This document shows positions 16,739 through 20,299 of a stretch of 64,000 bases of DNA, in pieces (the first letter of the stretch is position 1; each line of letters opens with the position of its first letter). Origin of the DNA: Clostridia bacterium (GTDB lineage Bacteria; Bacillota; Clostridia; TANB77; CAG-508); contig CAAGKN010000026.1 of NCBI GenBank assembly GCA_900770415.1, forward strand, positions 109,955-173,954. The letters run 5' to 3'. The translations under genes and the position numbers were made by a program. The notes below the pieces were generated by a model that saw only the letters and a program-made list of their open reading frames with translations, did not search any database and was not told where the DNA came from.

Positions 16739-17961
16739 TTTTCTTTCTCCCATCCATTAGTTTGACTCATTATTTCCTTAACATCTCGAAAGCTTTTATT
16801 TTTATTTAATGTTACCCAATACAATTCTATATCAGGTATATTTAATGAATCGTGTATATGTAATTCAATATTATCTGTTCCAAATTGTTTATATATTTTT
16901 TTCCAGAATGTATTTGATTTATAGACCTCTATACCTCTATTATTACTTGCAATTTGCAGAATTACAAGTTTTGCATTTGGTTCTGTTTGTTCTATTTTGA
17001 AATCCTGTATTTCAGAATTTAAAACCATTTTATGCACTTTTAGATTGTTATTGTCTAGGTCTTTACGTGTAAACCATCCTATTATATCTGATAGGTTATC
17101 TTCTGTAAGGAACGAATCATCTGCAGTTGCATATGTTGCAAATCTTAAAAAGTTGATAATATAATCTACATCTTTAGTAATTAATGTAAAATTGTGTGTT
17201 TCAACATTAGTTTCATAAATTTCTATAATATTAATAGCAGTGCTATTTTCATTATAGTAATTAGAAATTATATCCTCTGCAATTTTATTTTTTTTAGAAC
17301 CAATTATAATTATAAGTGGATTCAATATTGTTCTAAATAATTCATGTTCTAATTTATTATTTTTGCATTTAATAAATTGAACTTCTTCAGTTTGTTCTTC
17401 ATATTTATCTATTCTTTCTTGGGTATGTCTTTTATATTCTTCTTTCTTAAATTCATCAATTATTTCATTCCCAAAATCATCTATTGCAACTATAGAGCAA
17501 AAAAATCCAGGCGCATACCACATATCTTTAGCTGTTGAATACATTTTCTTCCAATATGTTTCTACTATTTCTTTATCTTTTCTCAATTTTTTTGGAATTT
17601 CTCTAACATCACATAGTCCGTTATTTATTTCCAATAACGCTAATTCTTTATTGTCTTTTTGCTTTTCTCCAATGTATCTATATCCTGATATTCCTTCAAT
17701 TATTGAGGCTTTGCAACATTCAAAATCATTCTTTACATTTTCTGAAAAAAATTCTAAAGCATATCCATACTTTCTCTTAAAAACTTCTTTTGCAAGTTCC
17801 TTATTAGCTTTTAGTTGCTTTCCCATATATTCACATACCAAGCCATCATAAGCATCTATGGCATTTATTATTACTTCTTCATCATTTATAAATTCCTCTG
17901 GTATTTTATCTTTTTTTAATTCTTTTGATTTAATTCTTTTTATACATTCTTGTTTATTCAT
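16735..17961 (-). CDS. Hypothetical protein; N-terminal repeats resemble DUF4116
   Basis: Repeated ...E(E/K)V(I/F)..A(I/V)......(Y/F)......K.NKELA... units in residues about 20-130. C-terminal half unknown. 8-nt overlap with the upstream gene. Confidence 0.5.
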   Translation of the reverse strand: MNKQECIKRIKSKELKKDKIPEEFINDEEVIINAIDAYDGLVCEYMGKQLKANKELAKEVFKRKYGYALEFFSENVKNDFECCKASIIEGISGYRYIGEKQKDNKELALLEINNGLCDVREIPKKLRKDKEIVETYWKKMYSTAKDMWYAPGFFCSIVAIDDFGNEIIDEFKKEEYKRHTQERIDKYEEQTEEVQFIKCKNNKLEHELFRTILNPLIIIIGSKKNKIAEDIISNYYNENSTAINIIEIYETNVETHNFTLITKDVDYIINFLRFATYATADDSFLTEDNLSDIIGWFTRKDLDNNNLKVHKMVLNSEIQDFKIEQTEPNAKLVILQIASNNRGIEVYKSNTFWKKIYKQFGTDNIELHIHDSLNIPDIELYWVTLNKNKSFRDVKEIMSQTNGWEKEK

Positions 17962-20299
17962 ATTTTTTATTTTCTCCCTTTAATATTCCTCTATTAAACA
18001 TTTCAAGTATTAATTCTAAGTCATTTATCTTATCCCTATTAGCACAATTATAATCTAACTCTTTATCTATCTCATGTCTTTCTTTTTTATCATATAATCT
18101 ATGTAGTTCATTTTTAACCTGGCTCTTGCAGTAATAATCTTTTATATTCAATTTAGATTTTATTTTAAAGTAAACTTTATAAAATGCTTCTGGATAATGT
18201 ACTTTAAACCATGCAATTTTGAATGCATTTATTGTATAAGATATAGCATGAGATTTTGGGAACATATAACTAATTTTTTCTGCTGACTCAATATACCAGT
18301 TGGGGATATTATGCTTTCTCATTATATTTTTGTATTTGTCCCATTGTTTATTATAGTTTTTATGTCCATCTCTCATATATTGCCATTCGCTTCTAGCTTT
18401 AGAAGCTTTTCCTCTCCCAACAAAATCAACTATATCATACGCTTTTTTATTACCTATTCCATTATTTGTAAGATAATTATACATATCTTCACGATTTGAA
18501 ATAACCTCATCAACTTTTTTACATTCATTTTTAATTAATCTTGCTGCATTACAGATCCACGTATCTGTCCCATGTGAAAGAGCAGATATACAGACTAGGT
18601 CATTAAAATTCTTTGGTTTTGCTACTTCAATCATCTTTTCTACAAATTTTGTTCCAAATTCAGAAATACCTTTTGTGCTAATCATATAGGATTTATTATT
18701 TGTGTGTAAAAACATTTTCAATGTTTGTTTATCATTAAAATCAATATCTTTCGAATTTATTTTTGTTTCTTTTTCTAATTCATGTATCATTGTTAGATCA
18801 TCATTACTTAATATATTAAATTTATATAATCCCAAGTCCCAAAGTGTATGATAGTCGCAATGTGTTTTTAGGTATCCTTTATCTCCAATTTCTGTTGGGC
18901 AAAAGTCCAATATTCCCAATTCAGTAGGAATAATAAAAATTCCTTCAGGATGTTCTCCCGTTATTCTTTTTACTCCTGCTAATTTTTGTAATACTTCTTT
19001 TTTATTTTCAAAATCATCTATTTCAAAATTTTTTTCATATTCATTAAAACAATCTGTCACAGTTTTGTCTGACAAAGTACATATTGTACCTCCCAAAATA
19101 ACTTTATATTTTCCGAACCTTTTTTGTAAATATTCAAATATTTTATATCTTATTTCTCCTGAACAATTTAAGTATATATCTGGTTTTTTATTGTAGTCTT
19201 TTCCAACGAATACTTCAAACGGGAGATTATATTTTACAGGATCTATATTGGTTATACCTAGCAAATATGCAACTAATGAGCATCCTACACTTCCTCTGTA
19301 ACCAACTTTATATCCTAATTTGTTTGAATATTCTGCAATCTCACTATATATTAAAAAAATTGTTTCAAATTGATTTTTTATTATGGAACCAATTTCTAAT
19401 TTTAATCTATCCTTTATATCTTTAGGTAATTTTCCTCCATATAATCTTTTGGCCTTGTCATAACATTTTCTATTAAGTATTGTATCTGCAGATTCTATTT
19501 CAGGACATTTGTCTTTTACTTGTATCAAATTAATTTTGTCTATCTTATTTGCTATTTTTTTAGTATTATCATTTATTATTTCTTTAGCATTTTCTAAATA
19601 ATTAAACTTATCTATTAATTCTTTTGTTCTTTGAAAATAATTATAATTTCCTTCTTCTATATTATTAGATTTTTTATAAAAATTTAATATTTCATTGCAT
19701 CTATAGTCTTTTTCATTTATAAAATTACATTCTGATGTTCCGATAATAATTTTATTTTCTTTTTTACAAAGTTCATTTATTTTTTTGTTTATGTTCTCAT
19801 TGCTTTTATTTGGTTCAATGCCTACAAAATCATAATATTTTAAAATTTTTAAAACATTTGAATTATCAATATTTTGATAAACTTCGCTGTTTTTACCTAT
19901 TGAAGCAAATAATAATCCATCTCTACTTTGGTTTAATTCATTTCTGTATATTATAGGTTTTCCATACTCAGTATGTGAATAAGCTTTTGATATTAATTTA
20001 TATAAATTTTTAAGCCCTTTTTGTTCTTTTACATAAATATAAATGGAATATTCATTTTCTGTATTATGACTTTCCTTTAAGTGCATTTCTGCCCCGTAAA
20101 TAATTTTAAAGTTCTTGCTATTTGTACAAAGTTTCAGATAATTATAAGCTTCAAAAAAAGACTGTGTACTATCTATATCAGTTAATGCTATTGCATTATC
20201 TCCTCTTTTTATTGCTTCCGCTATATATTCTCTTGCATCATTAATTCCTTGTAATTTTGACATTTTAGTATGGCAACATAATTCAACTCTATTTTCCAT
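17954..20299 (-). CDS. Truncated PolC-like protein (PHP + Pol III alpha core); lacks N-terminal/OB and 3'-5' exonuclease domains; active-site residues substituted
   Basis: Collinear with PolC motifs: VELCCHTKMS, GYRGSVGCSLVAYLLGITNIDP, KKPDIYLNCSGEIR, GVKRITGEHPEGIFIIP, ISALSHGTDTW, YMFPKSHAISY. Confidence 0.8.
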   Translation of the reverse strand: MENRVELCCHTKMSKLQGINDAREYIAEAIKRGDNAIALTDIDSTQSFFEAYNYLKLCTNSKNFKIIYGAEMHLKESHNTENEYSIYIYVKEQKGLKNLYKLISKAYSHTEYGKPIIYRNELNQSRDGLLFASIGKNSEVYQNIDNSNVLKILKYYDFVGIEPNKSNENINKKINELCKKENKIIIGTSECNFINEKDYRCNEILNFYKKSNNIEEGNYNYFQRTKELIDKFNYLENAKEIINDNTKKIANKIDKINLIQVKDKCPEIESADTILNRKCYDKAKRLYGGKLPKDIKDRLKLEIGSIIKNQFETIFLIYSEIAEYSNKLGYKVGYRGSVGCSLVAYLLGITNIDPVKYNLPFEVFVGKDYNKKPDIYLNCSGEIRYKIFEYLQKRFGKYKVILGGTICTLSDKTVTDCFNEYEKNFEIDDFENKKEVLQKLAGVKRITGEHPEGIFIIPTELGILDFCPTEIGDKGYLKTHCDYHTLWDLGLYKFNILSNDDLTMIHELEKETKINSKDIDFNDKQTLKMFLHTNNKSYMISTKGISEFGTKFVEKMIEVAKPKNFNDLVCISALSHGTDTWICNAARLIKNECKKVDEVISNREDMYNYLTNNGIGNKKAYDIVDFVGRGKASKARSEWQYMRDGHKNYNKQWDKYKNIMRKHNIPNWYIESAEKISYMFPKSHAISYTINAFKIAWFKVHYPEAFYKVYFKIKSKLNIKDYYCKSQVKNELHRLYDKKERHEIDKELDYNCANRDKINDLELILEMFNRGILKGENKKYE

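Follow-up and report, generated by a model that had tools for sequence, protein, structure and literature searches.

A truncated PolC paralogue with degenerate active sites in an accessory cassette of uncultured gut Clostridia

Introduction

Why would a bacterium keep a long, intact gene for a replicative polymerase in which catalytic residues have been replaced? The question is raised by a 64,000-nucleotide stretch of a Clostridia genome (GenBank assembly GCA_900770415.1, contig CAAGKN010000026.1, positions 109,955 to 173,954 of the forward strand), hereafter called the window and numbered from its first letter. It contains a gene, here named POL, whose 781-aa product resembles the DNA polymerase PolC. 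An original prediction, made from the sequence alone, described this product as a truncated PolC paralogue with substituted polymerase and PHP active-site residues that heads an operon in an accessory island. We have followed up this description by comparing POL with solved PolC structures, with its relatives and with closely related strains. We lean, by no great measure, towards the view that this PolC-derived pseudo-polymerase is a non-catalytic module of an accessory, probably conflict-related gene cassette, and that the copy in the window is eroded and under purifying selection. In what follows, P-numbers denote proteins and L-numbers loci retrieved in our searches, and the POL-CTD family is defined here.

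A PolC core with catalytic residues replaced

The gene and the positions at which its active sites have changed are as follows.

17954..20299, minus strand: POL, the 781-aa PolC-derived pseudo-polymerase (assigned by Pfam, NCBIfam and phmmer)
19490..20299, minus strand: degenerate PHP domain of POL, residues ~1-270, with the PolC-invariant His, Asp, Glu and Cys positions replaced
19172..19174, minus strand: codon TAC of Tyr376, which replaces the second catalytic Asp (D974 of Enterococcus faecium PolC; PDIDLNF has become PDIYLNC)
18815..18817, minus strand: codon AAT of Asn495, which replaces the third catalytic Asp, in the KxD motif (KLDILGHDD has become KFNILSNDD)

POL begins with an ATG codon that is preceded, 8 nt upstream, by an AGGAG ribosome-binding site. 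Its Pfam domains are PHP, DNA_pol3_alpha and DNA_pol3_finger, with neither an OB domain nor PF00929. The PolC models are by a wide margin its best NCBIfam matches (NF001688, 604 bits, cut-off 873; TIGR01405, 571 bits, cut-off 1043), even though POL falls below both cut-offs; DnaE models reach ~200 bits, and the DnaE2-type model NF004225 gives 153 bits against a cut-off of 939. In phmmer alignments with two structural references, the PolC proteins of Geobacillus kaustophilus (3F2B) and E. faecium (9QPC), residues 2-772 of POL are collinear with the PHP, palm, thumb and fingers regions (E = 1.6e-111 to 3F2B). POL residue 2 pairs with chain position 114 of 3F2B and 360 of 9QPC, so that the alignment begins at the first PHP motif and ~340 N-terminal PolC residues, comprising the N-terminal and OB domains, are absent. 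The exonuclease insert is absent as well, with POL residues 73-74 contiguous across chain positions 428 to 627 of 9QPC (~200 residues). The alignment stops about 85-95 residues short of the PolC C-terminus. The core is collinear with PolC and the two parts first described as missing are absent, as originally proposed; POL does not have the C-terminal end of PolC either.

Both active sites are affected. In the PHP domain, the HxH motif (HLH in PolC) is CCH (residues 8-10, codons 20270..20278) and the TDH motif is TDI (residues 40-42, codons 20174..20182), each in register in the phmmer alignment and as first read. In the palm, the catalytic triad has become D374, Y376 and N495 (D-Y-N), again with every substitution in register. 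D972 and D974 are the polymerase catalytic residues of E. faecium PolC (PMC12592400), and their counterparts in POL are D374 and Y376, while N495 aligns with the KMD of the KMDFLG motif in a bona fide DnaE1 encoded at locus L020. The two predicted Asp replacements are therefore borne out by alignment to solved PolC proteins and by the literature, and the triad is not preserved. All structural motifs listed in the original prediction are present too, namely GSVGCS at residue 336, GVKRITGEHPEG at 442, SHGTDTW at 575 and YMFPKSHA at 678.

Two trivial explanations were considered and rejected. An active polymerase with misregistered motifs is at odds with the unambiguous phmmer alignment to two solved PolC proteins and with the literature-confirmed catalytic residues of the E. 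faecium enzyme. A sequencing artefact is at odds with two independent assemblies, L001 and L002, which share the D-Y-N state and the same 781-aa open reading frame (ORF); the 781 codons are undisrupted in all three assemblies. With its polymerase and PHP sites both disabled in the alignment, POL fits the proposed dead or repurposed polymerase fold, and, judged by its sequence, it almost certainly cannot synthesise DNA. Nor would it be the only polC of its host, given that a 97%-identical strain (L070) does without the gene at this locus.

The POL-CTD family

A protein search retrieved ~85 close relatives of POL with 40-72% identity, behind which ordinary PolC proteins rank at 30-35%. Most of these relatives are 1100-1300 aa long and consist of POL joined to a homologue of the 339-aa ORF that lies further downstream in the window, here called CTD; short members of 750-780 aa also occur. 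The PHP signature, CCH and TD followed by a residue other than His, is common to all ~85 relatives as well as to POL. Out of 206 PolC-invariant columns, 64 are lost throughout the family, among them those that carry the His, Asp, Glu and Cys residues of the PHP metal site; a further 81 are retained in >=90% of members. The Pfam domain HHH_6, found in true PolC matches, was not detected in the family.

The polymerase site tells a different story. Its D-D-D triad (PDIDLNFS, FDILGHDD) is kept by the closest relative, P0002 (72% identical), and by most other members, so that Tyr376 and Asn495 do not hold as family features. In a neighbour-joining tree, the family is monophyletic within PolC-type sequences, the triad has been lost on at least 13 separate branches and the D-Y-N lineage of the window sits on a long branch. 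One clade, represented by 10 species-level genomes, encodes a reduced POL without the PHP domain and residues ~400-495 (the thumb region); its triads are degenerate in 10 out of 10 cases, yet the ORFs are kept and are fused to CTD. Non-catalytic POL is thus a recurrent and stable state in the family. As the alignments have it, death of the PHP site defines the family, and death of the polymerase site is lineage-specific but recurrent.

Among 185,579 species genomes, the family was located at 60 species-level loci, all in genomes that were assembled from metagenomes (rabbit, Hadza human, mouse and ruminant samples) and belong to uncultured gut Clostridia, to which it is confined as far as sampled. 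In text searches of the literature, we found no account of such a truncated or paralogous PolC, of CTD or of the cassette described below. Bacterial C-family polymerases have been sorted into four groups, PolC and DnaE1-3 (PMC3919608, PMC12926913). Such censuses are blind to the POL-CTD lineage because they used complete genomes and the lineage is known only from metagenome-assembled ones; no inactivated PolC-derived member of the C family is listed in either of the two bacterial-polymerase censuses consulted.

PolC-type proteins without the exonuclease also occur outside the family. The nearest named outsiders (33-35% identity) are P0087-P0098 of the Syntrophomonadaceae, e.g. from Thermosyntropha lipolytica, which are ~1210-1220 aa long and resemble POL in being PolC-type with no exonuclease detected. 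Unlike POL, they have intact sites: HxH, TDH, D-D-D, OB and HHH_6 are all kept, and there is no CTD. A second outside group without exonuclease, of 700-870 aa, is found among P0099-P0101, P0107, P0109 and P0114; within it, the triad of P0107, which comes from an Oscillospiraceae genome, reads K-S-D.

The CTD and DUF4116 genes downstream of POL

Two genes follow POL on the same strand.

16735..17961, minus strand: 408-aa DUF4116 protein (Pfam), with ~380-aa homologues directly downstream of POL-CTD fusions elsewhere
16735..16814, minus strand: foreign tail of the 408-aa gene (last ~21 residues), NKSFRDVKEIMSQTNGWEKEK, identical to the C-terminus of P0150 and modelled with a predicted local distance difference test score (pLDDT) <50
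15734..16753, minus strand: CTD, 339 aa (334 aa if the start is at 16738), homologous to the C-terminal domain of POL fusions

The extra 330-520 residues of the long POL relatives match the 339-aa ORF over its full length with 49-66% identity. In the window there is no such C-terminal fusion: the POL protein stops at the domain boundary, and CTD is a separate gene 1.2 kb downstream. The proposal that POL acts as a scaffold for the two downstream proteins therefore gains support for the 339-aa ORF, which equals the domain normally fused to POL in relatives. Across the 60 loci, CTD comes fused to full POL, to reduced POL or to a DnaB C-terminal domain (three loci), in tandem or alone; by this comparison it is the constant module, joined alternately to PolC or DnaB fragments.

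CTD is widespread beyond these loci, with 891 clusters at 50% identity among 1.84 billion representative proteins, mostly as a stand-alone protein of ~340 aa. Only one cluster member bears a name, 'hypothetical protein'. An AlphaFold2 model built from a 41-sequence alignment (pLDDT 85, predicted template modelling score 0.84) had no Foldseek match in the PDB or BFVD at E <= 0.001, and CTD is predicted to have a novel fold. Further members of the CTD family include P0152-P0300, and the neighbours of a distant member at L071 are an ADP-ribosylglycohydrolase gene, a TraG-like gene and a set of Ssp-like phosphorothioation genes.

The DUF4116 protein was modelled with a pLDDT of 81; the model contains an N-terminal helical repeat region, and its top Foldseek matches are all FtsZ, tubulin or TubZ, weakly (E 0.003-0.05, TM score 0.35-0.45). 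Searches of PADLOC, Pfam, NCBIfam and PHROGs gave only the DUF4116 repeat and one PHROG family of unknown function for this protein, and no match for CTD or for the 284-aa protein encoded upstream of POL. P0150, with which the 408-aa protein shares its tail, belongs to X285, a conserved 285-aa family whose genes usually precede a DnaB-like, POL or CTD gene. Since the tail is identical to the end of X285, the 3′ end of the 408-aa gene derives from an X285 gene that has been deleted.

Strain comparison and history of the locus

Two features upstream of POL bear on the history of the locus.

20320..20379, minus strand: remnant (60 nt) of a DUF4116 gene 3′ end, ELHIHDLLNIADIELYWLIL and its stop, just upstream of the POL start; a recombination footprint
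20514..20554, minus strand: terminator-like hairpin (17-bp stem and T-run) between the 284-aa gene and the POL operon

The sister strain L070 (97% nucleotide identity) has the order DUF4116, X285, CTD; POL is absent, and the intergenic stretch found ahead of POL in the window leads there into the start of DUF4116. L001 (98.7% identity) has POL and the chimeric DUF4116 gene but lacks the DNA corresponding to window positions 15705..16725, the CTD gene. An 800-nt deletion removed X285 from the window. Strains that are 97-99% identical thus lack POL or CTD, and the gene is therefore dispensable.

This history qualifies the proposed translationally coupled three-gene operon. The overlaps are real: POL and the 408-aa gene share 8 nt, and the 408-aa gene and CTD share 19 nt, or ATGA if CTD starts at 16738. 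The arrangement itself arose by deletions and is specific to the strain. From the strain alignments, the operon is real in the window strain but a recent mosaic, each gene of which is dispensable. In the leader of POL (20380..20500, minus strand) lie the palindromes CTAGGAAATGAGAAATTTCCTAG and GGCTAGAACAAAG…CTTTGTTCTAGCC, which could be operator sites or leftovers of recombination.

Turnover is also evident on the other side of POL. In L001, the interval from the gene for a WYL-domain regulator to POL contains genes for a relative (270 aa) of the 284-aa protein and for a tubulin-like protein in place of the UzuA gene and the 284-aa gene of the window. Window 21465..23386 and L001:1174-3342 are wholly different from the middle of the WYL gene to POL, in a setting of ~98.7% identity across the POL operon and 94% over the end with the DnaJ C-terminal-like and WYL genes. 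By this comparison, the interval from mid-WYL to POL is a hotspot of cargo swapping.

Selection on the dead copy

If POL is dead as a polymerase and dispensable to the strain, is it simply decaying? A comparison of the window with L001, both D-Y-N, yields 9 synonymous and 9 non-synonymous changes in POL, which corresponds to a ratio of non-synonymous to synonymous changes per site (pN/pS) of 0.22 (P = 0.002 against neutrality); for CTD, compared between the window and L070, pN/pS is 0.21 (P = 0.0008), and these estimates come from only 18-20 substitutions. For the DUF4116 gene, pN/pS is 0.38-0.54. POL of the window has changed at 6 of the 81 PolC-invariant positions that the family keeps (family median 2), and all six changes are conservative. 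Its lineage has 1.5-1.7 times as many unique substitutions as that of its sister P0002 (92 vs 53, chi-square 10.5), an acceleration that falls short of a runaway. Such a pattern is expected of a protein that has lost catalysis and kept a role dependent on its fold, and is unexpected of a neutral pseudogene; the counts are small. With an intact frame and a pN/pS of 0.22, POL does not look like a pseudogene.

The same data bear on the rival idea of an eroding relic, i.e. a recently inactivated accessory polymerase that is now functionless and whose frame is intact merely because too little time has passed. This idea draws on the two single-nucleotide changes that suffice to kill the polymerase site, on the faster lineage, on the separation of POL from CTD and the deletion of X285, on sister strains without POL or CTD and on the absence from the window of the core partners described below. 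It also fits the state of the gene just downstream of CTD (14896..15636), which carries several frameshifts. Against it speak the low pN/pS between two strains that were both already D-Y-N, with a similar value for CTD, the persistence of 781 codons without a stop codon or frameshift in a gene of 25% G+C, the intact ribosome-binding site and gene overlaps, the small number and conservative nature of changes at conserved positions and the persistence of dead-triad forms in many other lineages. On balance, we regard a functionless relic as rather unlikely. That the window gene is a reduced remnant is probable, and it is possibly non-functional.

The frameshifted gene itself (14896..15636, minus strand), which lies between CTD and rplI, resembles cell-wall enzymes and has at least four frameshifts; its joined conceptual translation matches PG_binding_1 (E = 5e-17), and it is probably a decayed endolysin or peptidase gene.

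The cassette and its genomic setting

Upstream of POL lie four further genes on the same strand.

20574..21428, minus strand: 284-aa protein with relatives at L001, L004 and L024; variable part of the island
21465..22310, minus strand: UzuA-type GIY-YIG protein of the Uzume defence system (PADLOC E = 1.5e-50); variable cargo
22400..23386, minus strand: WYL regulator (helix-turn-helix (HTH), WYL and WCX domains), in the same orthologous cluster as the WYL gene at 34 of the 60 loci
23415..23822, minus strand: 135-aa DnaJ C-terminal/zinc-finger-like protein without J domain, recurring at the head of related cassettes

The prediction of an accessory island with a WYL regulator and a GIY-YIG protein alongside is confirmed, and the latter protein can now be named as UzuA of Uzume. 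We considered whether the 284-aa protein is the missing X285, and rejected this on an hhalign probability of 0.2%. A second cassette in the window was likewise rejected, the 1112-aa ORF at 35614..38952 being AddB, and a search of window positions 12000..26000 against Rfam revealed no RNA family.

Beyond the window, the neighbours of POL and CTD form a recurrent set within a cassette that is hypervariable. A WYL regulator gene lies nearby at 34 of the 60 species-level loci, a SpoVK/CbbX/EccA-like AAA+ ATPase gene (~530 aa) at 33, a gene for a DnaB C-terminal-domain protein (~270 aa) at 30, a DUF2779 gene at 23 and X285 at 19. The DnaJ C-terminal-like neighbour recurs as well, in a cluster that includes the gene at window 23415..23822. 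The DnaB-like protein aligns with residues 179-432 of DnaB (E = 1.8e-72) and has intact Walker A, Walker B, catalytic Glu and Arg-finger motifs. Other cassette genes encode truncated paralogues of essential proteins: FtsZ (residues 58-324 of 353, E = 1.6e-94), DnaA (AAA+ domain only, 102-336 of 437, E = 3.2e-94) and DnaJ (200-259); an RNase J fragment (8-271) and a protein consisting of a tubulin GTPase domain only add to the list. Genes of this truncated-paralogue kind lie at L008:5436-6236, L019:7648-8382, L012:6892-7710, L037:3664-4866 and L001:2612-3301. Interspersed among them are defence genes, namely UzuA in the window, a GmrSD pair and a type I restriction system at L003, and dGTPase-like HD proteins; macro and ADP-ribosylglycohydrolase genes are also found in related cassettes. 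The cassette has the host dnaB as a neighbour in the window and at L004 and L006, and dnaE at L020. In the 64-kb window, genes for the DnaB-C ATPase, the AAA+ ATPase, DUF2779, X285 and tubulin-like proteins are absent.

This accumulation of truncated paralogues, PolC core, DnaB C-domain, DnaA AAA+ domain, FtsZ and DnaJ, invites the speculation that the WYL-headed cassette is an immune or growth-arrest system in which such copies serve as decoys or poisons, an idea that we consider quite unlikely as it stands. In its decoy form, and by analogy with the integrated decoys of plant NLR (nucleotide-binding leucine-rich repeat) receptors, the copies might trap the inhibitors that phages direct at replication and division, CTD being a shared signalling module; in its poison form, they might be dominant-negative subunits that halt host replication and division when induced.

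Applied to POL itself, the decoy idea says that a truncated PolC mimics a host protein that phages inhibit and that binding of the inhibitor, sensed via CTD or the AAA+ ATPase, triggers defence. It gains some weight because the cassette is rich in high-scoring truncated paralogues of the essential DnaB, DnaA, FtsZ and DnaJ. In addition, one and the same CTD is fused alternately to a PolC or a DnaB fragment, catalysis has repeatedly proved dispensable, and the setting is that of a defence island with a WYL regulator and fast turnover at the strain level. All of this is circumstantial; no effector domain is recognised, CTD has no known fold, the DnaB-C proteins keep every ATPase motif, which a passive bait would not need, and most POL copies retain D-D-D. 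We therefore rate an integrated PolC decoy as distinctly unlikely.

A different origin for the gene set would be the remnant replication and partition module of an integrated mobile element, comprising a helicase, a polymerase and a tubulin-like segregation protein and now decaying in the chromosome. The combination of DnaB-like ATPase, C-family polymerase and tubulin/FtsZ-like proteins, a large serine recombinase gene 8 kb from L009 and a G+C content below that of the flanks would all suit such an element. Most loci, however, are found within large chromosomal contigs without integrase or structural genes, and the FtsZ, DnaA and POL fragments lack parts needed for normal activity. CTD was found neither in IMG/VR (pattern searches) nor in INPHARED (tblastn), together 2.9 million viral contigs and 50,697 phage genomes. 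For POL, the best matches in phage and plasmid collections are ~32% identical and no closer than ordinary PolC. Nothing in those collections points to a phage or plasmid origin, and we hold a decaying mobile-element module to be highly improbable.

Two further observations concern the window at large. The host dnaB gene (13028..14363, minus strand) is split into ORFs of 212 aa and 234 aa with a break near 13725..13775, apparently a single extra C in AAAACAGCACGGACTTCAC; frame 2 restores the reading, and either the assembly has an indel here or an essential gene has really become a pseudogene. At 46494..50202 (minus strand), a gene for a fused nitroreductase-YcaO protein (732 aa) stands beside one for the ATPase of an ATP-binding cassette transporter, and may belong to a locus for a ribosomally synthesised and post-translationally modified peptide of the thiazole/oxazole-modified type.

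Comparison with known systems

POL is like PolC in being collinear with it over PHP, palm, thumb and fingers, and the POL-CTD family branches with PolC-type sequences. It departs from PolC in lacking the N-terminal/OB part, the DnaQ exonuclease insert, the C-terminal end, the PHP ligands, a full triad and a detectable HHH_6 domain, and in being dispensable among strains, as L070 illustrates, whereas PolC is essential.

A second point of comparison is DnaE2/ImuC, a non-essential C-family paralogue that is SOS-inducible and error-prone and forms part of the ImuA-ImuB-DnaE2 mutasome. DnaE2 has an inactivated PHP site and no proofreader (PMC12926913). POL shares these traits and, like the DnaE2/ImuC systems, has a gene for a RecA-fold ATPase adjacent in the cassettes; it differs in being PolC-derived, in its dead polymerase site and in the absence of ImuA or ImuB among its neighbours. 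A PolC-based analogue of DnaE2/ImuC, working as an accessory error-prone or damage-inducible polymerase together with the DnaB-C ATPase and controlled by a WYL regulator responsive to DNA damage, with the window copy as an ImuB-like scaffold or simply dead, could be envisaged. Proofreading would be lacking for want of a live PHP domain and an exonuclease, as in DnaE2, the triad survives in most members, the DnaB-C ATPase has all its motifs, a Y-family polymerase gene adjoins L003 and host dnaB or dnaE is next to the cassette in several genomes. Nevertheless, the window copy is without two of the carboxylates, so that the idea is plausible for its D-D-D relatives and not for POL itself. Moreover, the Y-family neighbour occurs at one locus only, the reduced forms without PHP and thumb region cannot be polymerases, a mutasome would have no use for truncated FtsZ, DnaA and DnaJ paralogues or for defence cargo, and presence of the gene varies among strains. 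We judge this role to be very unlikely.

Polymerase folds that have lost catalysis and are kept as non-catalytic subunits are known from ImuB, other iPolY proteins and PolX with an inactivated site (PMC12926913). These belong to the Y and X families, whereas POL is a C-family protein.

A final point of comparison is regulation. Like other WYL-controlled accessory systems, the cassettes described here have a WYL-domain HTH regulator, which stands at their head at 34 of the 60 loci; they differ from those systems in that the regulated genes match no PADLOC system. Among WYL regulators, BrxR and CapW control defence systems, and PafBC and DriD control DNA-damage regulons.

A proposed non-catalytic module in an accessory cassette

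Taken together, these observations lead us to favour, if only slightly, POL as a non-catalytic module. It would act by binding, be it to primer-template DNA or to some usual binding partner of PolC, and would work together with CTD. The accessory cassette, probably conflict-related (of the defence type), would be under the control of the WYL regulator. The window copy would be an eroded, strain-specific derivative that has been split from CTD, has most cassette partners absent and is still under purifying selection.

Several observations weigh against this interpretation. Most family members have an intact triad, which argues that the ancestral form depends on catalysis or at any rate on metal binding, and since WYL regulators also control DNA-damage regulons, a role in repair is still compatible with the setting. 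In PADLOC-DB 2.0, no system model matches POL, CTD or the DUF4116 protein, although the neighbouring UzuA and WYL proteins do have matches. The CTD model resembles nothing in the PDB or BFVD that would suggest a function, and the case for selection shares the small substitution counts given above. Finally, sister strains have deleted POL or CTD; together with the partners absent from the window, these deletions mean that the local system may no longer work.

Concluding remarks

The probable remnant status of the window gene tempers its individual importance. At the level of the family, a PolC-derived paralogue in which catalysis is lost time and again while selection persists would correspond, in the C family, to the dead polymerases of the ImuB type, and CTD, a ~340-aa domain of predicted novel fold in 891 clusters, is worth characterising in its own right. 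If the immune or growth-arrest idea were true, the dead PolC of the window would be one such bait or poison. In any case, a cassette of cut-down PolC, DnaB, DnaA, FtsZ and DnaJ offers a testable way to ask whether copies of a bacterium's own essential machines serve it as decoys or brakes.

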